From Anaerovoracaceae bacterium (GTDB lineage: Bacteria > Bacillota > Clostridia > Peptostreptococcales > Anaerovoracaceae): a DNA stretch of 64,000 bases. Location of the stretch: the NCBI GenBank assembly GCA_051893555.1, contig JBJFHL010000062.1, forward strand, positions 34,250 through 98,249, read 5' to 3'. This document shows, piece by piece, positions 8,501 through 36,253 of this stretch. The position numbers were made by a program, and so were the translations under genes. The notes under the pieces were generated by a model. That model did no database searches, was not told where the DNA came from, and was given only the letters and a program-made list of their open reading frames with translations. Every line of letters begins with the position of its first letter. Position 1 is the stretch's first letter.

Positions 8501-8793
8501 AAACGTTTCCAGTTCATGCGATATTTCTTTTTCTTCTTTTCCTTTTTCTCATTCCCCGAAGAAGACGTTGCAGCCGAACCGGAAGCGGACTCCGAAGCTG
8601 CCTCCTGCTGACGCATTTCAAACTTTTCCTTCCGGGAAGGGCGCCTGTGTTTGGCCTCTTCTTTTTTTCGCCTACGGGAGTGCTGTGGGATATCTTCTCC
8701 TGACGGTTTATTCCTATTTTCTTTATCCTCATAATGATTCAAAAAAACCACCCGCTTTCTATCATGATTCCATAGATACAAATAGTATAACAT
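5587..8793 (-). CDS. class A penicillin-binding protein (glycosyltransferase/transpeptidase, PBP1A-like)
   Basis: GT51 motifs EDKTFRDHHGFN and GTSTITQQLARN. Transpeptidase motifs SGSSIKP (SxxK), SLN and KTGTT. Single TM (FILVCFCICMLAGVAVVGWAA). Start uncertain: a TTG at 8742 preceded by GGGTGG is an alternative to 8793. Confidence 0.88.
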   Translation of the reverse strand: MLYYLYLWNHDRKRVVFLNHYEDKENRNKPSGEDIPQHSRRRKKEEAKHRRPSRKEKFEMRQQEAASESASGSAATSSSGNEKKEKKKKKYRMNWKRFILVCFCICMLAGVAVVGWAASVIMKAPEIDTSNIYSLLSQSSVLYDDQGEVLDTLVGADGQKRTIVELKDIPEDLQNAFIALEDKTFRDHHGFNIIRIFGAIKDAFFNGGHISGTSTITQQLARNVYLPDTMSKRDLNRKVIEAYYAVILEKKLNKDQILEAYLNTVNFGKAYGVQAAAQAYFSKDVNELTLAECASLAAMPQYPTVYALVQQVSANDINDDTDNLIFKDGDVAYVWNDTALPRIRTCLALMLEQGYITQAEYDEAKTVEIKDIVNPNTDILNKTTNYFADYVINKVISDLQEQLGYDYTKAHNMVYSGGLNIYTTMNTEMQQIVETEFKNDANFPTLVVSRKDGQGNILDEFGNVILYQYSNYITSKGYFRLKPSEYQWNDDGSLTIYAGKRLNLYDTTVQGQSDVSVEFKNMYVVDNGTFYTISGGFINIPQEYKSKDSNGNLLVSAKFFEDYPDFFKQSGERLITKGFTLQQRVIQPQAAMTIVDNETGYVKAMAGGRKVNGRMILNRAVATRQSGSSIKPLTVYAAALQKSFELEAEGKTFPVIDSNFGYQGDALWGNYLTAASIIDDEPTTVNGKKWPVNSPAGYNGLLTMRRALQKSLNICAVKIMQQTGTDYCFDLAEKFGLTTLVREGEVNDNNLAALALGGQSRGVTTLEMASAYTTFVNDGIHKSYNVYTKVTTRSGDILLEADTKENEVLDPGVAWIMRDMLQSDITEGIAGAAAVSGAKAGGKTGTTSDQFDIWFDGFTAKYSAALWIGSDINIKLSSMSGTAARLWGRIMNQIPGVASGTYSAKPSNVISVSIDTKSGMLATEASGSDVRTEYFTKGTQPTETDTLHQTMDVCSESGYQATPSCPDVETKSGILRPYTPNKRVADIGKELPHYYCNLHNPDPNVYKVKKGLDVTIVQPGELTEPEEPDEGEDPIIPDDPDEPNPENPNAPDDPANQEEENNNGESVN

Positions 8794-8948
8794 AACTCAT
8801 AGACAAAGTTAAGAAATATATTGACGAACTTCTTACAAATCTCCTTCATTTCTCTGTTTTTTTTCTGACAGACAGAAATTCTGGTTGAGATGATACCGTA
8901 AATGTAATATAATGGATATGGATAGCATACCCCCGGAAAGGGGAAAAC

Positions 8949-11063
8949 ATGAGAAGAAATAATCTGATGATCACCATCGGCTTCATTCTGTTGCTGACTC
9001 TGCTGCACAGTGCAGGGTTTTCTTTCGCGCGTTCTGCGATTGCAGAATATGCGGAACCGGATAGAATGAAGCCGGTTTCTGTTTACGGAAAGATTACCGG
9101 AATGGAAGAAAGAGAAAACGGCGGTTATCGGATGGAGATTCTGGCAGAATCCATCGACGGAAACATGCTGAAGAAAAGGGAAAAGATCCTGGTCACCTGC
9201 CCGAAGATACAGGAAAGCCCGGGACAGCTTTTTCGGCACAAAATCCATCTGCAGGGCAACTTACGGCTTCCGGAGAAGCGGCGGAATCCCAGGTGTTTCG
9301 ATTACAGACTCTATCTGAAATCAGAGGGAATTTTTTATCAGATGACGGCAGAAAGATATGTACTGGATGATGATGCAGAGACTGTGACGGATCGGATTGC
9401 GGCATGGCTCATTGACCGTCGGTTTGCATTTCAGCAAAATCTTTCACAAGAATATCGTGGTCTGATCAGCGGCGTGCTTTTCGGCGATACCTCCGATATG
9501 GATGCGGAGATTTATGATTCGTTCCGGGCGAACGGTACAGCCCATATTTTGGCTGTCAGCGGGCTTCACCTTGGCATTTTGTACAGTCTGTATCAGAAAC
9601 TCGCCGGCAATAAGAAAAACCCGGCTGCGGTGATTTTGCTGGGAGCGGCCATATTGGCATATGGGACGGTTTCCATGTGGAGTTCGTCGGTAAAGAGAGC
9701 CGCAGTGATGATCAGTCTGCAGGTTGCTGCGCGTATTCTGGATCTGCGGTATGATATGCTGACCGGTCTGAGCACGGCTGCCATGATACTGATTTTGATG
9801 AATCCCTATGTAATCTTTGGGGCGGGGTTTCAGATGTCCTTCCTTGCGATTGCTTCCATATGCTTCTTTCGTCCGGTCCTGCCGAAGAAGCTTCCTGACA
9901 GTTTTTCCGCCATGGTTTCTGTTCAGTTTGGACTGTTCCTGTATCAGATGTATCAGTTCAACTATGTGTCTCTGACAGCACTGATCGCAAATCTGCCGGT
10001 GGTTTTTCTGGCCGGACTTCTGGTGCCTGCCGCATTGCTCTGCTTTCTCCTGTTTCTTCTGACGGGAAGCGGCGGATTCCTTATGACGGTGACGGACAGC
10101 TTATGCAATCTCCTGCTTGCGGTAAACCGGCTGTCATCTCTGGAAGGCAGGGGCGGTTTCGATGTGATCAGTCCGCCGCTGTGGCTTGTCATCAGCCTGT
10201 ATCTGCTACTGTTTTTCCTTACGTCAGAAACATGCCAGGTACTGCGGCTGCGCGGCAGGCATAAAATGATTTACCTTTTGATGTTTTTCTGCATACTGTT
10301 TGGGTTTGCCTGCGGAATGATGACAGACTCCCCTGTATCCCGGGCGGATCTGGTCTTTGTGGATGTGGGACAGGGGGATTGTATCCATATACGTGACGGA
10401 AACAGAAACATTCTGATCGACGGCGGTGGAAGCTTTACTTATAATGTTGGTAAGAATGTGCTGAAGCCGTATTTACTGAAGAATCGTGCAGCGTGTGTTG
10501 ATCTGGCTGTCGCCACCCATCTGCATACGGATCATTATCAGGGACTGTTGGAACTGTCGAAGGCCTATCGGGTGAAAAAAATAACAGCGGGACTGACGGC
10601 AGGTACCAACATCAAAATATCAGACCGGGTCAGCATTGAAACACTGTGGCCGCAGGAAATCGATCCGGAAAAAGGACAGGAAGAAAACAGCCAGTGTTCC
10701 GTGTTTATGATTCATTATGGCAGATTTCGTATTCTGGTAACGGGAGATCTGGATGCGGAAGGGGAGAAAGAGATGGTGGCGTATTATGCAAAAGCAGGCC
10801 GGCTGGATCATCTCAAGGCGGATATTCTGAAGGTTGGTCACCATGGAAGTGATACCAGTACCAGTGATGAATTTCTGGATGCAGTGCAGCCGAAAGCGGC
10901 TGTGATACAGGTTGGTGTATACAATATATATGGTCATCCAAGTGGAAAAATCATTGAAAAACTTTGCCAAAGGGGTATAATAGTGAAAAGAAATGATTAC
11001 AATGGGGGAATCGGTTTTCTTTTTTATGAAGACGGTTTTCAAATTGATATAGTCATTTCATAA
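8949..11063 (+). CDS. comEC: DNA internalization-related competence protein ComEC/Rec2
   Basis: Polytopic competence domain (GTAHILAVSGLHLG) plus a C-terminal metallo-beta-lactamase domain (VDVGQGDC, HLHTDHYQG, KVGHHGS). Confidence 0.85.
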   Translation: MRRNNLMITIGFILLLTLLHSAGFSFARSAIAEYAEPDRMKPVSVYGKITGMEERENGGYRMEILAESIDGNMLKKREKILVTCPKIQESPGQLFRHKIHLQGNLRLPEKRRNPRCFDYRLYLKSEGIFYQMTAERYVLDDDAETVTDRIAAWLIDRRFAFQQNLSQEYRGLISGVLFGDTSDMDAEIYDSFRANGTAHILAVSGLHLGILYSLYQKLAGNKKNPAAVILLGAAILAYGTVSMWSSSVKRAAVMISLQVAARILDLRYDMLTGLSTAAMILILMNPYVIFGAGFQMSFLAIASICFFRPVLPKKLPDSFSAMVSVQFGLFLYQMYQFNYVSLTALIANLPVVFLAGLLVPAALLCFLLFLLTGSGGFLMTVTDSLCNLLLAVNRLSSLEGRGGFDVISPPLWLVISLYLLLFFLTSETCQVLRLRGRHKMIYLLMFFCILFGFACGMMTDSPVSRADLVFVDVGQGDCIHIRDGNRNILIDGGGSFTYNVGKNVLKPYLLKNRAACVDLAVATHLHTDHYQGLLELSKAYRVKKITAGLTAGTNIKISDRVSIETLWPQEIDPEKGQEENSQCSVFMIHYGRFRILVTGDLDAEGEKEMVAYYAKAGRLDHLKADILKVGHHGSDTSTSDEFLDAVQPKAAVIQVGVYNIYGHPSGKIIEKLCQRGIIVKRNDYNGGIGFLFYEDGFQIDIVIS

Positions 11064-23703: not shown

Positions 23704-24963
<1,260 letters not shown>

Positions 24964-24976
24964 GATAGAGGAAACC

Positions 24977-26194
24977 ATGACTGCAGAGAACACCGGTATG
25001 CGCGATAATTGTCCACATTGCGAATTTTGCGGAGGGTGCATCCATCAGGGCGTGCCCTACGAAAGGCAGCTTGCGGAGAAAGAAAGGGAAGTCCGCAGGC
25101 TTTTGGAAGCAAAGAACGTGACGCCGGACCGGATCGATCCCATCGAGGGATGCCCGTCTCAGTACGGTTATCGGAACAAGATGGAATACACCTTCGGCGA
25201 TTTCGTCAAAGATGGGGAAATGACCCTGGGCATGCACCGAAAGAAAAACTTCATGTCCATCGTTACAGTGGATCAGTGTCAGCTGGTGGATTCGGATTTC
25301 AACGTGATCCTGGCGGCGGTGCTTGCGTTTTGCCGGGAGCGGAGCTATAAACCGTATCATAAACGGACCCATAAAGGCCTGATGCGGAACCTGATCATCC
25401 GGAAGGGTGTTCGAACCGGCGAGCTACTGGTCAATGTGGTTACATCTTCGGAGCCGGGGTTTGCGGAGGAGGAATTTGTATCCATGCTTCAAAACCTCTC
25501 TTTGCAAAATACACTGGTCGGGGTTCTGCGGACCTTCAACGACAGTCTTGCGGATGCGGTAATCTGTCAGGAACTGAAGGTACTCTGGGGCAGGGACTAT
25601 TATGTAGAGAAGATTCTGGGTCTCTCCTTCCGGGTCAGTGCGTTTTCTTTCTTCCAGACGAACGTGGAGGCCGTGGAACGGCTGTATTCCGAAGCGCTGG
25701 CACTGGTAGACTCCTTTGAGGGCAAGTCAGCCTTCGATTTGTACTGCGGGACCGGTACCATCAGCCAGGTGCTGGCTTTGCGGGCAGCAAAGGTGCTTGG
25801 GATTGAGCTGGTGGAGGAAGCGGTGGAATCTGCGAAAGAAAATGCGGCGGCCAATGGCCTGACCAACTGCAGTTTTCTGGCCGGCGACGTGTTCGAAGTG
25901 CTTCAGACCGTTTCGGAAAAGCCGGATGTCATCGTAGTGGATCCGCCGCGGGTTGGCATTCAGCCGAAGGCACTGGATAAGATCATCAGCTACGGCGTTC
26001 CGGAGATTGTATACATCTCCTGCAATCCGAAGACCCTGGCAGAAAACCTGAAATATATGGAGTATTACGGCTATCGCTGCAAATATCTGAAACCATTCGA
26101 TAATTTTCCGATGACAAAGCATACAGAGTGCATTACACTGCTGTCAAAGATAACGGAAAACGGAATGAAAATGCACGAAATGGAAGCGAAATAA
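24977..26194 (+). CDS. 23S rRNA (uracil-C5)-methyltransferase, RlmD/RumA/TrmA family
   Basis: N-terminal Cys cluster CPHCEFCGGC. Motifs DLYCGTGTI, DPPRVG and YISCNP. Start ambiguous (24941, 24950 or 24977). 24977 follows AGAGGA and lies after the tgt stop. Confidence 0.85.
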   Translation: MTAENTGMRDNCPHCEFCGGCIHQGVPYERQLAEKEREVRRLLEAKNVTPDRIDPIEGCPSQYGYRNKMEYTFGDFVKDGEMTLGMHRKKNFMSIVTVDQCQLVDSDFNVILAAVLAFCRERSYKPYHKRTHKGLMRNLIIRKGVRTGELLVNVVTSSEPGFAEEEFVSMLQNLSLQNTLVGVLRTFNDSLADAVICQELKVLWGRDYYVEKILGLSFRVSAFSFFQTNVEAVERLYSEALALVDSFEGKSAFDLYCGTGTISQVLALRAAKVLGIELVEEAVESAKENAAANGLTNCSFLAGDVFEVLQTVSEKPDVIVVDPPRVGIQPKALDKIISYGVPEIVYISCNPKTLAENLKYMEYYGYRCKYLKPFDNFPMTKHTECITLLSKITENGMKMHEMEAK

Positions 26195-26203
26195 TAATAA
26201 AGA

Positions 26204-26232
26204 TTGCTATTGTTCCGATAAAAGAATATAAT
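26204..26232 (+). promoter_or_regulatory. putative sigma-A promoter of the R-M block
   Basis: TTGCTA, 17-nt spacer, TATAAT, located about 30 nt upstream of the methyltransferase ATG. Confidence 0.45.
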
Positions 26233-26260
26233 AGTTGCATAGAATGAATGGAGGTTTCAT

Positions 26261-28402
26261 ATGCTGCTTACTTCAACAGAATTAGCTGAAAAATGGGGAA
26301 TCTCTGCCAGACGTATTTCACTTCTATGCAGCGAAGGGAGACTGGAGGGGGCCTTTAAAAAGGGAAAAACATGGTTGATTCCTGATAATACACCAAGACC
26401 GGATGATTTAAGAATAAAAACCAATGGAAAAGAAAATCGGCAGATGCTTGGGATTCAAAACAGGAGATACCTGGGAAATAAATATAAATTACTCGATTTT
26501 ATTGAGGAAACCATAGAAGAACACTGCCCTGGCGTACATTCCATGTTTGACGTATTTGCCGGCACGGGCGTGGTCGCATATCATTTTATGGATCGAATGA
26601 AAGTGGTTACAAATGACATCCTGTACAGCAATTATCTGGCGCATGTAGCATTTATGTCAAATGAAAAAATCGACAGCAAAAAAATCGATCAGACAATTCA
26701 TTTATTCAATTCTCTGAATCCGGCTGATCTGGATGAAAATTACATGTCGATCAATTTTGGTGATACATATTTTTCTCATGACGATTGTAAAAAAATCGGT
26801 TACGCGAGGGAATATATTAAAGCGCGATTTGAGTCAGGTGATTTGAATGCGCGTGAACATGCCATCCTGATTACTGTGATTCTATATGCGATGGACAGAG
26901 TTGCAAATACGTGCGGACATTATGATGCCTATAGAAAGGGAGCAGCGTTTGACCGCATGATAGAGTTTCTGCCCCTTGATCTGACTGCAAAATCAAAACG
27001 GAAAAATCTGTTTTACAACGGGGACGCCAACGAGATTGTAAATGAAGCGGATTTCCCGGCAGTGGACTGTGTATATTGTGATCCGCCGTACAATAGCAGA
27101 AATTACAGTGATCTGTATCATGTGCTTGAAAATGTGGCGAAATGGGAAAAGCCGGAAGTATTCGGCGTTGCCAGAAAAATGGACAGAACGGAATTAAAGA
27201 GCAAGTATTGCGGTAAGGAAGCTGCAGCAGCCTTTGATGATCTGGTTCAGAAACTGAGATGCAAATATATTATATTGTCATACAACAATACCGGAGATCG
27301 TGCGAATGACAGAAGCAATGCACGAATGACGGATCATGATATCATCCGTGTCCTCTCGAAAAAAGGAGATGTGAAGGTATATTCTAAAAAATATAAAGCG
27401 TTTACAACCGGCAAATCAGAGAATGATGCCAATGAAGAACGTTTATTTGTATGTACGGTTTTTTCTGACAAAAAGAATGAAAGAAAAGGGTATGTAAAAT
27501 CTCCGCTCAATTATACTGGTGGTAAAACCAGGTTGCTGCCGCAGCTTTTACCTCTTTTTCCGGATCATATTCACACGTTTTATGATCTGTTTTGCGGGGG
27601 AGCTAATGTTGGGATAAATGTGAAAGCCGATTATGTCGTATATAGTGATTCAAATGCAGATCTGATCGGACTATTCCATACAATATCAAAATACTCTTCC
27701 GATGCGTTATTGAAAAATATTTATGCTGTGATCGATAAATACGGATTGTCAAGATCCGATGAAAATGGATACGCGATGTACGGCTGCAACAGCGCGGATG
27801 GATTAGGAAGTTATAATAAGGAAAAATACGTGCAGTTGCGGAATGATTTTAATTCGCTTTCGGATCGAAATGATGAATACTATTTTATGCTGTATGTATT
27901 GATTGTTTTCTCTTTTAATAACCAGATCCGCTTTAATAAAAAGCATGAATTTAATCTACCTGTTGGGAAAAGAGATTTTAATAAGAACATACGAAATCAT
28001 TTTGTCCGTTTTGCGGAGGAACTTGCTGCACAGAAGTGTATGTTTCAGTGCAGGGATTTCAGAAATCTGACGCTGTCCGAACTTGGACCCAATGATTTCG
28101 TGTACTGTGATCCGCCGTATCTGATTACAACTGCCAGCTATAATGAACAGAATGGGTGGACAGAAAAGGACGAAAAAGATTTGCTGGAGCTGCTGGATCG
28201 ATTAAATGCGCGTGGGATACGCTTTGCGCTTTCCAATGTTATGGTGCATAAAGGCCGAAGCAATGCTTTGCTGATGGAATGGGCAAAGCAGTACCACATA
28301 CATAATCTCTCTTTCCATTACAACAATTCAAATTATCACGGGAAAAATACGGAACAGGAAACGAAAGAAGTTCTTGTGACAAATTATGATGCATTCCGAT
28401 GA
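26261..28402 (+). CDS. Type IIS DNA adenine methyltransferase: N-terminal HTH plus two tandem Dam-like (alpha-class) domains, M.FokI/M.AlwI-like
   Basis: Two complete MTase halves. Half 1: RRYLGNKYKL, FDVFAGTGVVA, VYCDPPY. Half 2: SPLNYTGGKTRLL, DLFCGGANVG, VYCDPPY. About 65 aa of excisionase/MerR-like HTH (TSTELAEKWGISARRISLLCSEGRL) sit in front. Confidence 0.9.
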   Translation: MLLTSTELAEKWGISARRISLLCSEGRLEGAFKKGKTWLIPDNTPRPDDLRIKTNGKENRQMLGIQNRRYLGNKYKLLDFIEETIEEHCPGVHSMFDVFAGTGVVAYHFMDRMKVVTNDILYSNYLAHVAFMSNEKIDSKKIDQTIHLFNSLNPADLDENYMSINFGDTYFSHDDCKKIGYAREYIKARFESGDLNAREHAILITVILYAMDRVANTCGHYDAYRKGAAFDRMIEFLPLDLTAKSKRKNLFYNGDANEIVNEADFPAVDCVYCDPPYNSRNYSDLYHVLENVAKWEKPEVFGVARKMDRTELKSKYCGKEAAAAFDDLVQKLRCKYIILSYNNTGDRANDRSNARMTDHDIIRVLSKKGDVKVYSKKYKAFTTGKSENDANEERLFVCTVFSDKKNERKGYVKSPLNYTGGKTRLLPQLLPLFPDHIHTFYDLFCGGANVGINVKADYVVYSDSNADLIGLFHTISKYSSDALLKNIYAVIDKYGLSRSDENGYAMYGCNSADGLGSYNKEKYVQLRNDFNSLSDRNDEYYFMLYVLIVFSFNNQIRFNKKHEFNLPVGKRDFNKNIRNHFVRFAEELAAQKCMFQCRDFRNLTLSELGPNDFVYCDPPYLITTASYNEQNGWTEKDEKDLLELLDRLNARGIRFALSNVMVHKGRSNALLMEWAKQYHIHNLSFHYNNSNYHGKNTEQETKEVLVTNYDAFR

Positions 28403-28405
28403 GGT

Positions 28406-30409
28406 ATGGATATGGCGAAGCATTTTACGTATAAATCATATGCCTGGAGCCTGGGAACGACCAGCTTCAGAATGGCTGATTTTCACAGAAAAGTGGAGGA
28501 ACAGCTGATTTTATTGGATGCATTCTGGAATGTTCCTGAAAATAAAAGCAGAATCTGGAAATCCAATGCGCAAACGCAGTCATTGTATTATGATTTTCTG
28601 TTTGAAAAGGGATTTATCTCCGGTGAAATACAGAACAGTCCAGATAAGAAATCAAAAACAGCAAGGCAGAAAACGTCCGGACTCGTTGATATAGGTCTGA
28701 TCTATAACGACAGAAGACTGACGCCTGTAGGAAAAAAGCTATTGGACATGTGTCGCTCCGGAGATTTTAGCTGTGATAATGAGTTTCAGATCCCACGGGA
28801 CAGTTATCTGTATTTGAAACAAATATTGAAGACAGTATATAAAACGGAGGATTGGAAGGTACGTCCCTTTTTAGCAGCCGGAAAGGTATTGATGGAATGT
28901 GATGGCTATTTGTCTGAAAAAGAATTTACATACCTGCTTCCATTATGTGTAAGTGAAGATATTACAAAGGAAATTATAAAACAGATAAGAAACTACAGGG
29001 AAGGAAAGACCACGTTGAATCGGATCATTACGGAATCTGTCCTCTGCAGATATAATTATCCTTCTGCATTGCATTACTTTGTGCATTCGGCGAAAACACC
29101 TGAAGATATCATGGTGACAGGAATGAACAGAGATGGGATTCGGCATGATGCGTGCTATACATCGCTGTATCAGGAATTAAAACGAGTATATCTTGATCGA
29201 AAGCAGGAAGCGATTCCTTCTCTGATGAAAGCCGCGCGAGCGGTGAAAAACAAGCCGGGTACTTTGTGGAGAGGTTTGCTGTTTTCGAATGCTCGCAGAT
29301 GTACGAGCTTTTCCGATCTTGCACCGAATGATTTTGATTCTGTGCATACGGAAGAGCAATTTGACAGGTGCTTTTTTTCTTATCTTCATTTAAATAAGAT
29401 CAAGGCAACGCTCCGTGACTATATGGATCTGAACCGAAGGTATTTAAAGATCACGGACGCGTTTCTGTTTGAGGATGGGAAGGTGACATTCACACCTTTC
29501 TTTGATTACTTCTTTCGGACGAATGCGGGAAAGGTGTTTGAAGATACTTTTTCAGACTGTGATTTGCTGACGGAAGATTGTGATATAGAAACCATAAACA
29601 AACATTTACGCTTTCATGAAAATGAAGTCATCCGGATATTCAATGCAGAAAATGCGCTTTCAGCGCATTCCTTGGAGGAAGTTTATGACTTCCTCGAAAA
29701 TGACCGTTATCTGCGGTTTCGTAAGCTGATTGATACGCGATTCCCTGATCCGGTCATTCTATCCATGCTTGATAAATTTGAGAGCCGTGATCAGGATGCA
29801 GATCTGATCAGCCTTGCCGGCGGTGAGGCTGATGTACCTACCATATTCGAATATATCGTTGCAGTTGTCTGGTACAGAATAAGCGGATATACGGGAAAGA
29901 TACTGGATTATATGAATCTGTCACTGGATATGAATCTGCTGCCCAGAACACATGCTGGCGGTGGGGAATCAGATATCGTATATAAATATGCGGAAACACC
30001 GTTTTATCCGTCACATTCCCTTCTGATTGAATGCACGCTTATGGAGGGTACGACGCAGAGACATGGAGAAATGGAACCTGTATCCAGACATCTGGCCAAT
30101 TATATGATCGATGAAGATGAAAATGCATACTGCACCTTTGTTTCCAATAACTTGCATGCCTCTGTTATTTCGGACTTCAGAATGCGAAGAAGTTTTCCGT
30201 ACTATAGAAACGAACGTGACCATGTGAATGGAATGAAGATCATTCCGCTGCATACGAGAGAACTGAAGCGCATCATCGAGAAGAAGCTGTCATATGCACA
30301 GTTATATAAAATATTTGATGACGCATTTGTTTCTGACGAGGAAGAGGCTCCGCCTGCATGGTATGACACCTGTGTCAGGGGAAAAATTGATTCAATACAG
30401 GAGGGATAA
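28406..30409 (+). CDS. AlwI/BstNBI/PleI-family Type IIS restriction endonuclease (or nicking subunit)
   Basis: Starts 3 nt after the MTase stop. C-terminal catalytic region GGESDIVYKY...LLIECTLMEGTTQRHGEMEPVSRHL matches my recollection of the AlwI-family core (D..EhT/S ... EPVxRH). Confidence 0.72.
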   Translation: MDMAKHFTYKSYAWSLGTTSFRMADFHRKVEEQLILLDAFWNVPENKSRIWKSNAQTQSLYYDFLFEKGFISGEIQNSPDKKSKTARQKTSGLVDIGLIYNDRRLTPVGKKLLDMCRSGDFSCDNEFQIPRDSYLYLKQILKTVYKTEDWKVRPFLAAGKVLMECDGYLSEKEFTYLLPLCVSEDITKEIIKQIRNYREGKTTLNRIITESVLCRYNYPSALHYFVHSAKTPEDIMVTGMNRDGIRHDACYTSLYQELKRVYLDRKQEAIPSLMKAARAVKNKPGTLWRGLLFSNARRCTSFSDLAPNDFDSVHTEEQFDRCFFSYLHLNKIKATLRDYMDLNRRYLKITDAFLFEDGKVTFTPFFDYFFRTNAGKVFEDTFSDCDLLTEDCDIETINKHLRFHENEVIRIFNAENALSAHSLEEVYDFLENDRYLRFRKLIDTRFPDPVILSMLDKFESRDQDADLISLAGGEADVPTIFEYIVAVVWYRISGYTGKILDYMNLSLDMNLLPRTHAGGGESDIVYKYAETPFYPSHSLLIECTLMEGTTQRHGEMEPVSRHLANYMIDEDENAYCTFVSNNLHASVISDFRMRRSFPYYRNERDHVNGMKIIPLHTRELKRIIEKKLSYAQLYKIFDDAFVSDEEEAPPAWYDTCVRGKIDSIQEG

Positions 30410-30413
30410 CAAT

Positions 30414-31064
30414 ATGGAAGAGAGTAAAGCATTGGGACATGATGATGCGTCCGGTTTTTTATTCGCAAAGGAAATGCTGAACGGGGATGTTACAGCGGCT
30501 GTAAACTTCGATCGACTTATGAAGCATCCCAGGGAGGGATTTATTATCATGGAGTATCTGCTTTGCGAAGAAGACCAGATGGAAAAGCACAATACGACAC
30601 CATATACAAGCCATCCAAACAAATATTGGAATAAAAACAAAAGAAAATTTCTTTCGCTATGGAGAGCTGCACTGGATTTACATGGTTCACTGTATTTGGT
30701 GAATTACGCGAAAAAAGGAACAAAATTTGAAGATCAGATTCTCTGTATTAAAGTAAAAGGAATGAATGAGTACGGAATCTTTGAACAGGAAACGAAAAAA
30801 TATACCCGTGCTTCATTTCAGGCATGGTTCAGAGCGCTGAACCGGGAATGCCTGGGGCCGGAGGATGAGATCCTTGCGAAACAACCGATATACATCAGAA
30901 ACGGTTTTTACCATTCCAACAACAAGTGCAGTTTTTTAAGAGGAAAAAAGGACTACTCCTGCTGCGATATCCATGATGAATGGTATTACAGTAATTACAC
31001 ATATTGCAGAGAGTGTTATCCAAATGGGATATGTGATAAAATGGAAAATACAAAAACTCCCTAA
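30414..31064 (+). CDS. hypothetical protein, Cys/His-rich C-terminus, coupled to the REase gene
   Basis: ATG at 30414 sits 7 nt after an AGGAGGGA embedded in the REase 3' end, and 4 nt after the REase stop. 216 aa. No family recognised. C-terminus CSFLRGKKDYSCCDIHDEWYYSNYTYCRECYPNGIC. Confidence 0.6.
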   Translation: MEESKALGHDDASGFLFAKEMLNGDVTAAVNFDRLMKHPREGFIIMEYLLCEEDQMEKHNTTPYTSHPNKYWNKNKRKFLSLWRAALDLHGSLYLVNYAKKGTKFEDQILCIKVKGMNEYGIFEQETKKYTRASFQAWFRALNRECLGPEDEILAKQPIYIRNGFYHSNNKCSFLRGKKDYSCCDIHDEWYYSNYTYCRECYPNGICDKMENTKTP

Positions 31065-31138: not shown

Positions 31139-31284
31139 CTGAACCACAGGACCGGTTCAGACCGACGGAGGAATTTCCCGTCTGTGCTGACGAGTGACAG
31201 ATGGAAAAGTCCTGACGTGCAGGTCTGCCGGTCTGTTATATTTTGCGCAGAAAAAGAGGGAAAGCAGAAAGGGGAGAGCAAACC

Positions 31285-32175
31285 TTGAACTACGAAAGCT
31301 TCAAAAAGGAAATACAGAAACAGATCCTGGATCATCTGCCGGAAGGCAAAGAAGGGTGGACTGTAAAAATGGAACAGATTCGAAAGGTGAACCGGCTGCT
31401 GGACGGCATGATCCTTATGCCGCCGAATTACGCACAACCGCCTTATGGTGTGGGACTGACATTTTACATGGAGGAATATTTTGAACTGTATCGAAAGGGT
31501 ACGCCAATCGAAAAAATTCTGGAAGAGATTGCACGGATGACCAAAGAGTATGTGCCGTCAGAGCAACTGACGGATTCATTCTTTCATCCGGAAAAAGTAA
31601 AAAATCAGATCATTATGGAACTGATCCACCGGCAGCGGAACCGGAAACTTCTGGAGACATTGCCGCATCGGGATTTTCTGGATCTGGCGGTGATCTACCG
31701 AATCCTGATGAAGGACGAGGAGCGAGGGTATTATTGCTCGACGGTAAACTATGAAATGATGAAGCTGCTTGCGATGACGGAGGAGAGGCTGTATCAGGCT
31801 GCACGCGAATATATGCCGGCGGAGCTGCCGTTCGCTGCACGGAATTTTGAAAATAAATTCATGATCATTTCCAACCTGCGTGAGATGTTCGGCGCGTCGG
31901 TACTGCTGTTTCCGAATGTGCTGGATCAGGTATGTGAGGAGCTTGGCGGAAATCTGTATATTCTGCCGGCTTCCGGAAATAAGATCTGCGTGGAAAGAGA
32001 AAATCCGAAGCGGCTTGGAGAAATGCAAAAAATGCTGAGAGATTTTTATCATATGAGCAATGATCCGGATGATATGCTTTCCGATCAGGTCTACTTTTAC
32101 CGATGGCATTCCGGACAGGTTGAGATTATGCCGGATGCAGCGGATTTTAAGGATGAGGAAGGAGGAAGAGAATGA
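31285..32175 (+). CDS. hypothetical protein, DUF5688-like (paralog 1)
   Basis: TTG start 8 nt after GGGGAG gives MNYESFKKEIQ, parallel to the paralog's MISYERFRQEV. Shared blocks PHR.FLDLAVIYRI and YILP. The family name is from memory only. Confidence 0.6.
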   Translation: MNYESFKKEIQKQILDHLPEGKEGWTVKMEQIRKVNRLLDGMILMPPNYAQPPYGVGLTFYMEEYFELYRKGTPIEKILEEIARMTKEYVPSEQLTDSFFHPEKVKNQIIMELIHRQRNRKLLETLPHRDFLDLAVIYRILMKDEERGYYCSTVNYEMMKLLAMTEERLYQAAREYMPAELPFAARNFENKFMIISNLREMFGASVLLFPNVLDQVCEELGGNLYILPASGNKICVERENPKRLGEMQKMLRDFYHMSNDPDDMLSDQVYFYRWHSGQVEIMPDAADFKDEEGGRE

Positions 32176-33161
32176 TCAGCTACGAAAGATTTCGTCAGGA
32201 AGTCATGAACCGGATAAAGTCCTATCTGCCGGAAAGCTATGCAGGATGGAAACTGCGTATGGAAACCGAATATAAGATCAATCAGATTCTGGACTGTCTT
32301 ACCCTGTATCCGCCGGGAAATCTGAAACTGACTGCAGTCCCCCAATTCTATCTGCAGGAGTATTATCAATTGTATCTGAAGGGGGTCTCTGCAGATTTTA
32401 TACTGCGTATGATCGCTTCACGAATTGAAAATGTACCATCTCCCGAAGAGGTGGAACAGTCCGGTTTCGATATTCTGAAATTTCAGGACAGTGTGGTAAT
32501 GCAGCTTGTTCATCGGTTTCGAAATCATGTATTTCTGAAAAGCGTGCCGCACCGTCCATTTCTGGATCTGGCGGTGATCTATCGAATCATGGTTTTCGAT
32601 GAAAAGGGAAAGTGGGCAGGTGCTGTGATCAATCACACCATGCTGAACGCCATGGGAATTTCGGAGGAGAAACTGTTTGAACGGGCATACAGACATACTC
32701 CCGAGGCGCTTCCGTTTCAGCTGACAGATACCCGGGAATTGCTGCCGTGTAAGGGAATCTGTCGGGAGGATTGTACTGCGGATTGCGGGGAGAACTGCTG
32801 CAAAGTGCTGCAGAAGTATGCAGACACAGGCGAAGATGGGAAAAACACTTTCGCATGTATATTGCGGGAACAGAAAACGAAAATGCTTATGCTGTCCAAT
32901 GAAAGTGAACAGTTCGGTGCTGCTGCCATGTTATATCCGGAGCAGCTCAATGCGGCATGTGACAAGCTGGACGGCAGCATATACATCCTCCCTGGCAGCA
33001 TGCATGAACTGTATCTTGTCCGTGAAGAGCCGGAGAAACTGGGATTTTACCGGAAACTGGTCATGCATGCGGGAAGTGATGTGGTGGACGAGACGGATTG
33101 GCTGTCTGAACAGGTGTACCGATACAATCCGAAAACCGGGAAGGTGCGAGTGGCATTATAG
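32172..33161 (+). CDS. hypothetical protein, DUF5688-like (paralog 2) with a Cys-rich insertion
   Basis: ATGA start/stop overlap with paralog 1. Blocks PHRPFLDLAVIYRI and YILPGSMHELYLV. Insertion CKGICREDCTADCGENCC. Confidence 0.6.
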   Translation: MISYERFRQEVMNRIKSYLPESYAGWKLRMETEYKINQILDCLTLYPPGNLKLTAVPQFYLQEYYQLYLKGVSADFILRMIASRIENVPSPEEVEQSGFDILKFQDSVVMQLVHRFRNHVFLKSVPHRPFLDLAVIYRIMVFDEKGKWAGAVINHTMLNAMGISEEKLFERAYRHTPEALPFQLTDTRELLPCKGICREDCTADCGENCCKVLQKYADTGEDGKNTFACILREQKTKMLMLSNESEQFGAAAMLYPEQLNAACDKLDGSIYILPGSMHELYLVREEPEKLGFYRKLVMHAGSDVVDETDWLSEQVYRYNPKTGKVRVAL

Positions 33162-33190: not shown

Positions 33191-33841
33191 TTAAAGCAGG
33201 CGTCCTATGGCTTCCGGAAGATCCCGGATCTCTTGTATTACTGTATTCGCTTCGCAAAATTCATCCTCTCGGCCGTATCCGTAGTTGCAGGCAATGGAGA
33301 GTAACCCGTGCTTTTCTGCGACCTGCATATCGTGAAACCGGTCTCCGATGACAATGTAAGGACCGGGATGATCCTTTTGAATCCGAAGGAAGATTTCATA
33401 TTTCGGCATGTAATCATAGTCTTCGCTGCAGTAAAATCCATCGAAATACCGTTCCAGACCGAAGGCGGACTGATGTTGTTTCATATAGGCTTTTTTACAG
33501 TTACTGAGGAAGAGCAGGCAGTGTCCGGCGTTTTTCAGCTGCAGCAAGGTCTCTTCAGTGCCGGGGAAAAGGCGCGCCTGCCCTTCTGCGATGCGCCGTA
33601 CCATTTCTGCAGTGACAACTGCACTGGCATCCATGAGCCTGCTCCAGGGCTGATTCGGAAGGAGGGTTGTCCACATTTCTTTCGGTGAATACCCAAGCCA
33701 GCTTTTGATCTCCTCGTCCGTGAAGTCCCGGTCCGGAGCCAGTCCGCGCTGCACCAGGGTGCGGTATGCCAGCCGGAAGGCAGGAATATAGATATGGGCT
33801 GTATCATGGAGTGTTCCATCGTAGTCAAAGAGAAGATTCAT
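33191..33841 (-). CDS. HAD-superfamily phosphatase
   Basis: Motif I FDYDGTLHDT, motif II LSN, C-terminal GD..HD. Lies 12 nt downstream of ribH on the same strand. Confidence 0.85.
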   Translation of the reverse strand: MNLLFDYDGTLHDTAHIYIPAFRLAYRTLVQRGLAPDRDFTDEEIKSWLGYSPKEMWTTLLPNQPWSRLMDASAVVTAEMVRRIAEGQARLFPGTEETLLQLKNAGHCLLFLSNCKKAYMKQHQSAFGLERYFDGFYCSEDYDYMPKYEIFLRIQKDHPGPYIVIGDRFHDMQVAEKHGLLSIACNYGYGREDEFCEANTVIQEIRDLPEAIGRLL

Positions 33842-33853
33842 TTTAATGTGCCT

Positions 33854-34330
33854 TTAACCTTCGATGGACCGGATCAGGTTGACCATTTCAATGGCACCTT
33901 CCGCGCATTCGCTGCCCTTGTTTCCAGCTTTCGTACCGGCACGTTCGATGGCCTGCTCGATGTTTTCGGTGGTCAGAACACCGAACATGACAGGAATGCT
34001 GCTGTTTAAGGATACCTGCGCGATGCCCTTGGATACTTCGCTGCAGACATAGTCATAATGGGATGTATTTCCGCGGATCACAGCACCCAGACAGATGATC
34101 GCGTCGTACTTTCCGGTCTGTGCCATCTTGGAAGCGATGAGGGGAATTTCAAACGCGCCAGGCACCCATGCAACATCGATATCATCTTCTTTTACATCAT
34201 GGCGCTGCAGAGTATCGATGGCGCCGGACAGAAGCTTGGATGTGATAAATTCGTTGAATCGTGCGGCAACAATGCCGATTCTGGTGTTTCGGGAGACTAA
34301 TTTTCCTTCGTAAATGTTCATAGTTTTCAT
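33854..34330 (-). CDS. ribH: 6,7-dimethyl-8-ribityllumazine synthase
   Basis: 158 aa. Motifs [17 protein letters not shown] and LGAVIRG.T.HYDYV. Confidence 0.93.
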
Positions 34331-34377
34331 TCCTTTCGTCTTGCTTTTTTCGTGGTGTTCTATTTTTGAGTTTCCGC

Positions 34378-35583
34378 TTAGTATTGAAGCAAATGGCCCA
34401 TTTTTTCCTGTTTTGTTTTCAGGTAGAACAGGTCATGGGTATTGGCGGCGATCTGAATCGGAACGCGCTCGATGATTTCCATACCGAAATCTTTCAGCTG
34501 ATAGACCTTATCCGGGTTGTTTGTCAGAAGGCGTAGGGTTTTCGCACCCAGATCCTGCAGGATCTGGGCACCGATGAAGTATTCCCGCAGGTCGCCTGCG
34601 AAACCGAGGGCCAGGTTGGCTTCCAGGGTATCCATTCCCTGATCCTGCAGCTCATAAGCGCGCAGTTTGTTGATCAGACCGATTCCACGGCCTTCCTGGC
34701 GCATGTACAGGAGAATACCGCGGCCTTCTGCATTGATCTGCTGCATGGCAGCTGCGAACTGCTGTCCGCAGTCACAGCGCTGGGAGCCGAAGGCATCGCC
34801 GGTAAGACACTCGGAATGTACCCGGCAGAGCAGGTTTTCACCGCTTCCTATATCACCCTTGACCAGTGCCACATGGTGTTCACCATTTAACTTGTTCACA
34901 TAGCCGTAGGCGACGAAGTCGCCGTAGCGTGTCGGCATTTTTGTTTTTGCTACCTGTTCCACCAGCTTTTCGTGTTTCTTCCGGTATTCCTGCAGCGCTT
35001 TGACGGAAATAAATTTAATCCCGTATTTTTTTGCAAGCTCCTTCAGTTCCGGTGTGCGCATCATGGTGCCGTCTTCCCGCATGATCTCACAGCAGAGACC
35101 GCATTCTTTCAGTCCCGCCAGGCGCATCAGGTCTACCGTGGCTTCCGTATGACCGTTTCGTTCCAGAACGCCGTTCTTCTTGGCCAGAAGCGGGAACATA
35201 TGGCCGGGTCGCCGGAAATCATCTGCTCTGGCGCCTTCGCTGACACACATTCTGGCAGTATAGCCGCGCTCCTCCGCGGAGATACCGGTGGTGGTGTTTA
35301 CATGGTCGATGGAGACCGTAAAAGCAGTACAATGATTATCTGTGTTGTAGTCCACCATCTGCGGCAGCTGCAGCTTCTGGCAGTAGTAGCTGCTCATGGG
35401 CATACAGATCAGACCTTTTCCGTGAACAGCCATAAAGTTTACATTTTCCGTGGTGGCATATTCTGCTGCACAGATGAAATCGCCTTCATTTTCTCTGTCC
35501 GGATCGTCCGTGCAGAGGATAATCTTTCCCTGCCGCAGATCTTCCAGGGCTTCCTCAATGGTGTTGAATCTGAAATCTTCCAT
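34378..35583 (-). CDS. ribBA: bifunctional 3,4-dihydroxy-2-butanone-4-phosphate synthase / GTP cyclohydrolase II
   Basis: Motifs DRENEGDFI and [20 protein letters not shown]. Start set at the ATG giving [13 protein letters not shown]. The 5' extension of the ORF overlaps ribE. Confidence 0.93.
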
Positions 35584-35599
35584 AATCTCGTTTCCTTTC

Positions 35600-36253
35600 T
35601 TAAAATCCGTATGTTTCAATGAAATCCATGGTAATAGATGAAGTGTCTTTTTTCGGTCGGATCTCTGCAGGCTGCAGCAGTTTCTCCACATATTTGCCGA
35701 TGATATCATTTTCCAGATTAACCATATCGCCCGCCTTTCGTCGGGAAAGGGTGGTCTGTGCTGCGGTATGGGGGATGATGGAAACACTGAAATCTCTACG
35801 GGTAACAGCTGCTACCGTCAGGCTGATTCCATCGATGGTGATGGAACCTTTTTCAATGATGTACCGAAGGATGGCAGGCGATGCATTGATCGTATACCAG
35901 ACTGCAATATCATCCTGACGAATTGCAGCAATGGTTCCTGTACCATCGATGTGTCCCGATACAATGTGGCCGCCGAATCTTCCACCAGCTGCCATTGCAC
36001 GCTCCAGATTTACCGGGCTTCCCTGACGGAGATTTCCCAGTGATGAACGGTTCAGTGTCTCATGCATGACGTCTGCAGTGAAATAACTGCTGCCGTGGGA
36101 AGTGACGGTCAGGCAGACGCCATTTACAGCAATGCTGTCTCCATCTTTTACGTCTTCCAAAACTTTTGCAGCCTGAATCGTAAGAAGGGAACTTGCCGGG
36201 CCGTGCTGTACAGCCTGAATGATTCCGATTTCTTCTATGATTCCTGTAAACAA
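35600..36253 (-). CDS. ribE: riboflavin synthase alpha chain
   Basis: N-terminus [10 protein letters not shown] and a duplicated lumazine-binding repeat ([13 protein letters not shown] / [12 protein letters not shown]). Confidence 0.92.

Follow-up and report, generated by a model that had tools for sequence, protein, structure and literature searches.

We report that X, a 216-residue protein encoded at positions 30414-31064 on the forward strand of a 64,000-nucleotide stretch of Anaerovoracaceae DNA (contig JBJFHL010000062.1 of assembly GCA_051893555.1; the whole stretch is referred to below as the window), is the product of the third gene of a horizontally acquired restriction-modification (R-M) cassette and belongs to an undescribed protein family. 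Sequence comparisons indicate that the members of this family are optional and interchangeable add-ons to R-M systems that are built on amino (mostly N6-adenine) methyltransferases, and they argue that X is not a subunit of the AlwI-family restriction endonuclease (REase) whose gene it follows. As to what X does, our preferred explanation, with a probability of about 0.35, is that it is an optional, self-contained and sequence-independent DNA-acting accessory of R-M systems, which acts in trans on DNA structures or states that arise in restriction.

Gene structure and distribution of the X family

The cassette has the order M-R-X, where M is the methyltransferase (MTase) gene and R the REase gene. 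M (26261-28402, forward strand) encodes a protein of 713 residues with an HTH_17 helix-turn-helix (HTH) domain at residues 2-41 and two D12-class N6-adenine MTase domains, which were detected in two stretches with Pfam MethyltransfD12 (E = 8e-60) and with the PADLOC model MTase_II (E = 6e-212). R (28406-30409, forward strand), directly upstream of X, encodes a Type IIS enzyme of the AlwI family with 667 residues (Pfam RE_AlwI, E = 1.6e-65). This enzyme aligns with Nt.BspD6I in the PDB over the catalytic region (E = 6e-7), where ESD...IEC...EPVSRH is retained, and it matches 2P14 weakly in the PDB sequence search.

The ATG of X at 30414 lies 4 nt past the REase stop codon (TAA, 30407-30409), and the Shine-Dalgarno sequence read from the DNA, AGGAGGGA (30399-30406, forward strand), falls within the final codons of the REase gene and places GGAGG 9 nt ahead of the start codon; the stop codon of X occupies 31062-31064. 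An alternative in-frame ATG at 30294 would give a protein of 256 residues. The start at 30414 is backed by an identical 216-residue database protein (P0001, from an Anaerovoracaceae metagenome-assembled genome, MAG) and agrees with the homologues in our alignments, all of which start with M-x-x-S-K. The G+C content is 0.395 for X, 0.397 for M and 0.416 for R, with 0.47-0.51 in the flanks, and a consensus scan of the forward strand from 27383 to X found no promoter-like site. The short gap, the internal Shine-Dalgarno sequence, the common low G+C content and the absence of a nearby promoter give, as read from the DNA, sound reason to think that X is co-expressed with the R-M genes and translated from the REase mRNA. 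A preliminary description of this DNA had given the same reading frame, gap and Shine-Dalgarno position, had noted the AT-rich composition shared with the R-M genes, and had deduced co-expression; the first two points are borne out by the sequence and the third is well supported.

Homologues of X were collected with a word-indexed search (209 proteins) and with an exhaustive hidden Markov model search, which gave 298 clusters at 50% identity in 1.84 billion representatives. Searches of Pfam, NCBIfam, PHROGs and the PDB sequences with the N-terminal domain of X, both as a single sequence and as a profile, gave no match; a weak similarity to the hAT-dimerisation family (E = 0.005-0.17) was below threshold and is taken as chance. 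The statement in the preliminary description that no family could be recognised holds for these four collections but not for PADLOC, where the REase_II model PDLC03429 matches X with E = 1.4e-12; residues 11-143 align with positions 151-282 of a profile 324 positions long. In length and layout this model agrees with tandem proteins of 324-327 residues, here denoted X', which are encoded between M and AlwI-family R genes in Bacillaceae, and its REase_II label is the way in which the source lists such genes, not demonstrated cleavage. In the literature on BspD6I, the AlwI family, DUF3820, third genes of Type III systems and S24 fusions we found no description of the family.

The family is rare, with 44 loci in 185,579 species genomes, and its members are 55-65% identical over Bacillota, Bacteroidota, Chloroflexota, Desulfobacterota and Methanosarcinales. 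This patchy occurrence at roughly 60% identity across phyla, archaea included, indicates horizontal spread, as far as sequence comparison can tell. The family was found in none of 50,697 phage records and in 3 of 2.9 million viral contigs, and we have on this ground rejected a role as phage anti-restriction protein.

The X domain also occurs as a stand-alone protein of approximately 145 residues, and otherwise carries interchangeable tails: the zinc knuckle seen in the window, other zinc ribbons including Zn_ribbon_Top1, or ExoX-like_C, which is the commonest alternative and is present in 39 of 98 members. Such an architecture of domain plus tail parallels NERD+Zn_ribbon_Top1, which was found in locus L015. 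Moreover, there are tandem forms (the 324-residue X' proteins and P0166), in which the first copy is degenerate; for the X' proteins hhalign gave a probability of 99.5%. In P0147 the X domain is fused behind an EcoRI-like adenine methylase, and in P0184 and P0190 ahead of a LexA-like S24 peptidase. The Bacteroidales S24 clade concerned is also fused to HsdS (PF01420), to the HsdR C-terminus (PF11867) and to a DUF2075/SLFN helicase (P0296-P0397; loci L073 and L076). Judged by these fusions, the clade is a mark of R-M components and not of repressors alone, which suggests SOS- or RecA-responsive switching of restriction components.

The genomic contexts were surveyed at 55 dereplicated X loci, using annotated look-ups together with our own gene calls and seed searches. 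A DNA methyltransferase is encoded within three genes of X at 36 of the loci; thus the homologues are not found mainly outside R-M and defence contexts, an outcome that the preliminary description had named as one that would speak against its view. That description had also raised the question whether the homologues always follow AlwI-family REases, and they do not: Type IIS systems of this family make up 10 of the 55 loci, belong to three REase clades and show the gene orders M-R-X, R-X-M, M-X'-R and R-ss-X-M, ss being a small-subunit gene. The R-then-X order of the window recurs in L001, L016, L037 and L039. Type III systems, arranged as mod-X-res or mod-res-X, account for 14 loci, and an Eco57I-type MTase with a ResIII helicase-nuclease, or a fused helicase-methylase enzyme, for another seven. 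Both X-S24 fusions fall in this Eco57I/ISP-like group, each 2-3 nt past the gene for a ResIII-Eco57I protein of 1333-1355 residues. Five loci have a methyltransferase but no detectable REase (e.g. L025, L035, L052 and L054), and no methyltransferase is encoded near X at the remaining 19. In most cases the X gene and its neighbour overlap or are no more than 20 nt apart.

Partners are exchanged even inside an X clade of at least 72% identity, and the nearest relatives of the window protein that lack R-M genes (72-76% identical, with the same zinc tail) are encoded after an RNA methyltransferase gene or before cas3. Close relatives adjoin cas3, GmrSD, McrBC, NERD and STAND NTPase genes, and housekeeping genes (purH, a PBP gene and an RNA methyltransferase gene) surround some copies. 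Two solitary copies form single-gene islands of low G+C content: L047 (5965-6618; 0.39 against 0.47-0.50) and L019 (8001-8648; 0.37 against 0.45-0.46). From their composition, the solitary X gene appears to move on its own.

Relation to the AlwI-family REase and the BspD6I small subunit

The first of three hypotheses in the preliminary description makes X the catalytic subunit for the second strand in a Type IIS heterodimer whose other half, the 667-residue protein, acts as nickase, as in BspD6I. The likeness to ss.BspD6I (the small subunit of R.BspD6I, PDB 2P14) is that of a small protein, possibly a nuclease, whose gene directly follows, and is translated together with, that of a large protein of the AlwI family; the ss.BspD6I gene has the same position. 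The recurrence of AlwI-family REases of three clades as partners in the census, and the listing of the tandem form under REase_II in PADLOC, also speak for this hypothesis. However, ss.BspD6I duplicates the catalytic domain of AlwI enzymes, and X has no sequence, profile or fold relation to it. Specifically, X gave no match to Pfam RE_AlwI and lacks homology to the AlwI catalytic core (..PD/SD...E.(C/T)...EPV(S/T)RH), in agreement with the earlier remark that an E.D...ECS...RH core is not seen in X; phmmer of X against the PDB gave no match to 2P14 or 2EWF; a comparison of the X and REase families with hhalign gave a probability of 1.3%; and Foldseek with the X models found neither BspD6I nor FokI.

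The distribution of X points in the same direction. In a Methanosarcinales MAG (L034, 3412-7217 of CAZKIP010000001.1) the gene order of the operon is an AlwI-family large protein of 653 residues, a stand-alone AlwI catalytic domain of 206 residues whose gene overlaps that of the large protein, X, and an N6_N4 methyltransferase. BLAST of X against this 206-residue protein gave no match. A true small subunit is thus encoded beside X, and therefore the two coexist. It seems that this archaeon has a heterodimeric Type IIS system of the BspD6I type. Furthermore, neither X nor X' was found within 4 kb at any of 80 metagenome loci with REases 42-62% identical to that of the window, in a scan whose pipeline recovered the X of the window at E = 2e-74 as positive control, and only 1 of 41 plasmids with an AlwI-family REase carries a member of the family. 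X is thus optional for AlwI-family REases. Conversely, 45 of the 55 X loci have no AlwI-family REase, and Type III and helicase-methylase systems, in which the same protein is found, possess nuclease motifs of their own. We conclude from these comparisons that X is most probably not a subunit of the AlwI-family REase, and we consider the BspD6I-type hypothesis very improbable.

The idea that X might supply a nuclease which its partners lack was also rejected: the AlwI-family REases keep their catalytic core, and the Type III Res proteins encoded beside X keep a C-terminal PD..ExK motif of their own, in the form PDF...E-x-K. As a separate observation, the Res proteins of the mod-X-res systems (L023, L038, L059, L060 and L065; L055, L066 and L070) are missed by Pfam RE_endonuc (PF19778) while keeping PDF...E-x-K-G, and form a divergent subgroup of the Res nuclease domain. 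A Priestia megaterium plasmid (L026, 1667-9773 of NZ_CP069398.1) carries two AlwI-family REases of 652 and 706 residues, with a mutual identity of only 26%, on either side of a double Dam-type methyltransferase and a 327-residue tandem X' gene. This locus could represent two systems with a common methylase, or a pair of strand-specific enzymes.

Domain architecture and possible activity of X

The full-length protein was modelled with AlphaFold2 using 98 homologues (mean predicted local distance difference test score, pLDDT, 90.6), and a model of the N-terminal domain only was also made (pLDDT 87.9). Alignments and conservation mark out an N-terminal conserved domain at residues 1-147 (30414-30854, forward strand), for which the model predicts the order alpha-beta-beta-alpha-beta-beta-beta-alpha: a helix (residues 12-22), a hairpin (35-38 and 42-50), a long basic helix (68-88) that contains RYWNKNKRKF, three strands (92-98, 109-118 and 121-130) and a final helix (132-146). 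The rest of the protein (residues 148-216; 30855-31061, forward strand) is predicted to be a small zinc-binding module, with a compact tail at 148-205 and four kept ligands in a region of pLDDT 90-97. These are H167 (codon 30912-30914), C172 (30927-30929), C198 (31005-31007) and C201 (31014-31016), which are retained in 25-26 of the 26 relatives having this type of tail. The Cys/His cluster had been interpreted as a zinc module in the preliminary description, and four of its eight residues bear this out; the other four (C183, C184, H187 and C207) are not kept among the same relatives. The two-pair layout H167-x4-C172 ... C198-x2-C201, the high pLDDT and a weak Foldseek match in BFVD to the 'Metal binding domain of Ada' (E = 0.024, probability 0.99) support a single predicted zinc site in the tail.

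Conservation in the N-terminal domain was scored over 77 cluster representatives that are all less than 50% identical to one another. Near-invariant are D33 (codon 30510-30512; 74 of the 77), E47 (30552-30554; 73) and K78 (30645-30647; 76), and the same is seen for H67 (69), P68 (74), Y71 (70), N97 (71) and Y98 (74). The near-invariant aromatic residues comprise Y71, W72, F79, W83, Y98 and F135. The segment TPYTSHPNKYWNKNKRKFLSLW, which had been flagged as notable from the window sequence alone, is the best-conserved part of the entire family. The conserved residues counted above persist in the archaeal, Campylobacter, tandem, methylase-fused and S24-fused forms.

Most of the PDB neighbours of the N-terminal domain are weakly matching nucleases of the PD-(D/E)xK fold, i.e. 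SPARDA DREN, tRNA-splicing endonuclease (probability 0.72, template modelling score, TM, 0.52), Hjc, bunyavirus cap-snatching endonuclease, HincII and CidB, and the BFVD neighbours include, again weakly, UL24 and PDDEXK proteins. In the model, D33 is located just before the first strand of the hairpin and E47 on the second, which are the places of 'D' and '(D/E)' in PD-(D/E)xK nucleases. On this structural ground we give roughly even odds to the N-terminal domain being a very divergent restriction-endonuclease-like enzyme domain. A likeness exists to small dimeric PD-(D/E)xK nucleases (Hjc, tRNA-splicing endonuclease and minimal Type IIP enzymes such as PvuII), which share with X a size of approximately 140-160 residues and, going by the model of X, an alpha/beta core, an acidic pair on a beta-hairpin plus a lysine and a likely dimer, and which include its best, though weak, Foldseek neighbours. 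X differs from them in that the match is non-significant and the lysine lies outside the (D/E)xK position, and also in its invariant S-H-P..Y-W helix motif and N-terminal S-K-x-L tail, to which nothing corresponds in these nucleases. The tandem forms with one degenerate copy suggest that X works as a dimer. A classical sequence-specific Type II REase in the M-X pairs was ruled out by reasoning, because X is approximately 55-65% identical whatever the class of its MTase partner, and because solitary copies exist, which a host could not survive if X were a sequence-specific REase.

In the explanation that we prefer, the N-terminal domain would be a divergent PD-(D/E)xK-type metal-dependent DNA enzyme with D33 and E47 on the hairpin and K78 contributed by the basic helix. 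It would act as a dimer, held on DNA by an exchangeable C-terminal module, here the H-C-C-C zinc knuckle. The feature recognised would be independent of sequence, since X keeps its 55-65% identity whatever the specificity of its partner, and might be a DNA structure or state that restriction brings about, such as nicked DNA, an end, or an intermediate that is branched or hemimethylated. Each partner nuclease seen in this work has a single recognisable nuclease domain or motif; according to the literature on AlwI, FokI and Type ISP enzymes, it takes two protomers of such an enzyme to cut the second strand as well as the first. X may process the nicked or cleaved products of such nucleases in trans, which would benefit all of these partners, and in this way reinforce or safeguard restriction.

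Several points weigh against this explanation. The assignment of the fold is tentative: none of three Foldseek runs, which covered PDB and BFVD with the full-length and the N-domain models, gave a significant match (best PDB E = 0.047 with TM of at most 0.52; best BFVD E = 2e-3, to an unnamed protein), and in the first run, with the full-length model, YTH domains were among the likewise non-significant top hits. The canonical lysine position, two residues after E47, is a leucine in 68 of the 77 representatives, and the role of K78, on the next helix, as catalytic lysine is an assumption. Moreover, the M-X pairs without REase and the 19 solitary loci do not need processing of restriction products and fit a methylation-linked or a fully independent function at least as well. 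Finally, a nuclease that attacks nicks or branches should endanger its host, and no immunity or control factor is evident.

A methylation-linked function would make X a reader of methylation state or a methyl-directed nickase, which senses N6-methyladenine (m6A) or hemimethylated DNA independent of sequence; the mark of the neighbouring MTase would then be used to recruit or guide the R-M enzyme so that the cell's own DNA is protected once replicated or repaired, or to direct MutH-like nicking of the unmethylated strand. The constant partner of X is an amino-methyltransferase of any class or specificity (D12, the N6_N4 Mod of Type III systems, Eco57I-type, or the fused methylase of P0147), and such a function explains the REase-less pairs and the methylase fusion better than our preferred explanation does. 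The high conservation whatever the partner calls for a sequence-independent ligand, and the many near-invariant aromatic residues would agree with a reader, as would the m6A-reading YTH domains of the first Foldseek run; their probability was at most 0.44, however, and they were nearly lost with the N-domain model, so that we have dropped this lead and structural support is absent. Nor did any of the 98 members match Pfam RAMA, YTH, EVE or ASCH at E values up to 1. In addition, the loci with no MTase nearby (19 of 55) are left unexplained, some of the N6_N4 partner enzymes may make N4-methylcytosine, and the near-invariant aspartate, glutamate and lysine point to catalysis over pure binding. 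On balance we consider a function of this kind unlikely, although it is the foremost rival of our preferred explanation. MutH provides a precedent, as a PD-(D/E)xK protein that depends on the mark of an adenine MTase (Dam), but it is GATC-specific, monomeric, 229 residues long, related to Sau3AI and not homologous to X, which would read methylation independent of sequence. The best precedent for a methyltransferase companion is Vsr, a small protein of endonuclease fold that travels with DNA methyltransferase genes and has its function outside restriction; it accompanies Dcm-type cytosine-C5 methylases and repairs T:G mismatches, whereas X accompanies amino (adenine-type) methylases and is not homologous to it. 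The commonest alternative tail of X is the C-terminal domain of ExoX, and the ExoX C-terminus binds MutL. ExoX itself is a mismatch-repair exonuclease (PMC8744996). A link of X to mismatch repair is speculative, and we regard as quite improbable the far-reaching version in which X is a portable, sequence-independent MutH-like sensor-nickase for the state of adenine methylation, any N6-adenine MTase, irrespective of its site, marking the parental strand for nicking, repair or discrimination of self from non-self, with the tails (ExoX C-terminal domain, zinc ribbons, SOS-responsive S24) linking it to repair or damage signalling.

X might also be a free-standing defence or toxin gene, functionally uncoupled from the R-M enzymes, that hitch-hikes in R-M operons and defence islands, e.g. 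a modification-dependent (Type IV-like) nuclease or a PrrC-like guardian acting by abortive infection, which would account for the single-gene islands, the cas3, GmrSD, McrBC, NERD and STAND neighbours of close relatives, the partner swaps within one clade and the dispensability of X at the 80 REase loci. An independent module riding on the operon is the one of the three hypotheses in the preliminary description that fits best. Nevertheless, linkage to MTases (36 of 55 loci) is far tighter than co-location in islands, with genes overlapping or a few nucleotides apart and X even between mod and res; the X domain is found joined directly to a methylase, and also to S24 domains which elsewhere are fused to HsdS and HsdR parts; 147 residues leave little room for sensing plus killing; and REase_II is the only PADLOC system that X matches. 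PrrC and the rlo genes of Type I R-M loci resemble X as unrelated accessory genes co-expressed inside an R-M operon, but PrrC is an anticodon nuclease bound to one Type I enzyme, while X is linked to several R-M types and to MTases alone, and nothing points to a trigger or an RNA target for it. A free-standing defence gene is thus, in our judgement, rather unlikely. Much less can be said for a transcriptional controller, i.e. a dimeric DNA-binding analogue of the C proteins of Type II systems that would time or limit REase expression. Like C proteins, X is small, presumably dimeric, encoded inside R-M operons and optional within an enzyme family, and in operons of the types M-X'-R and mod-X-res its gene directly precedes that of the nuclease; it takes the usual place of the DNA-binding domain in the LexA-like P0184 and P0190, and a basic helix is present, as are zinc-ribbon tails. 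C proteins, though, are regulators of the HTH type with recognisable C-boxes, and X has no HTH in Pfam or NCBIfam and is modelled as a mixed alpha/beta domain; upstream of 48 operons we found no common 8-10-mer beyond the level of shuffled sequence (a weak test across distant taxa). Regulators specific for an operator would also not be conserved as evenly as X is over unrelated systems and phyla, the invariant acidic residues are enzyme-like, the window X lies after R in a cassette whose M protein already has its own HTH, and the fusion partners of the S24 clade in question include enzymatic R-M parts and not just DNA-binding domains. We therefore find a controller hardly probable, and the preliminary suggestion of a regulator or specificity accessory of this particular R-M system is too narrow for a domain that occurs in Type IIS, Type III and helicase-methylase systems and also alone. 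A role unrelated to defence, either as a factor in DNA repair or housekeeping or as a selfish gene tolerated downstream of MTase genes, would suit the copies among housekeeping genes and the rare, patchy occurrence across phyla; against the strong bias to R-M genes and defence islands, the absence from phages, the near absence from plasmids and the purifying selection on the putative active site, it seems very unlikely. X occupies the genomic niche of the BspD6I small subunit, Vsr, C proteins and PrrC, and is a member of none of these.

Sequences surrounding the cassette and significance of the family

A promoter-like site, TTGCTA-17-TATAAT (26204-26232, forward strand), precedes M and agrees with the consensus at 10 of 12 positions, as a pattern match alone. 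Just before the Shine-Dalgarno sequence of M (window 26194-26275) there is an octamer, GTTGCATA, which likewise occurs in three related cassettes (L001, 3617-3861; L016, 3527-3879; L039, 1518-1857). An inverted repeat, GGATGCTAAT...ATTAGCATCC, is present farther upstream in L016 and L039, and half of it in L001 and L035. The octamer or the repeat may represent an autoregulatory operator or a leader of the cassette. Past the stop codon of X, the first terminator-like match of the consensus scan is a weak hairpin at 31219-31236 (forward strand); a second match lies inside X (30526-30540), and such matches are no more numerous than in shuffled sequence, so the hairpin is to be read as a mere candidate.

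Two tandem DUF5688 genes, encoding 310 and 329 residues (E = 5.6e-59 and 5.8e-58), follow directly after the cassette (31243-33161). In the closest related cassette (L001, with an X protein 80% identical to that of the window) the position after X is taken instead by a gene for a GmrSD-type Type IV enzyme (GmrSD_N, GmrSD_C and DUF4357; 8644-10677), 16 nt past X. The upstream flank (23734-26194) has a tgt-like reading frame and a gene resembling those of tRNA/rRNA U5-methyltransferases (rlmD-like), and the downstream flank (33191-36253, minus strand) an unassigned 216-residue reading frame (33191-33841) and riboflavin-synthesis-like reading frames; the U5-methyltransferase label rests on 48% identity to an orthologous, Pfam-annotated gene of L001, and the other flank labels come from reading the translations alone. 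With housekeeping genes in both flanks, the cassette is therefore an insertion into the core chromosome. We make no claim that the solitary X of L047 and the M-R-X cassette occupy one and the same chromosomal site: the RNA methyltransferase encoded ahead of the former is only 33% identical to the rlmD-like protein of the window.

For annotation, the guess 'Type II restriction enzyme' should be dropped for the X family, and an AlwI-family enzyme followed by X should not be called a BspD6I-like heterodimer. What is new here is that R-M cassettes carry an undescribed and widely shared accessory domain: R-M systems are usually viewed as closed two-component units, and X is a recurrent optional third gene in three mechanistically different classes of them. 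Should X be an enzyme that acts on restriction intermediates or on methylation state, it would represent an overlooked general accessory activity of R-M systems and might provide a new structure- or state-specific DNA tool, with a bearing on how restriction enzymes with a single active site make double-strand breaks, or on how self-restriction is avoided.

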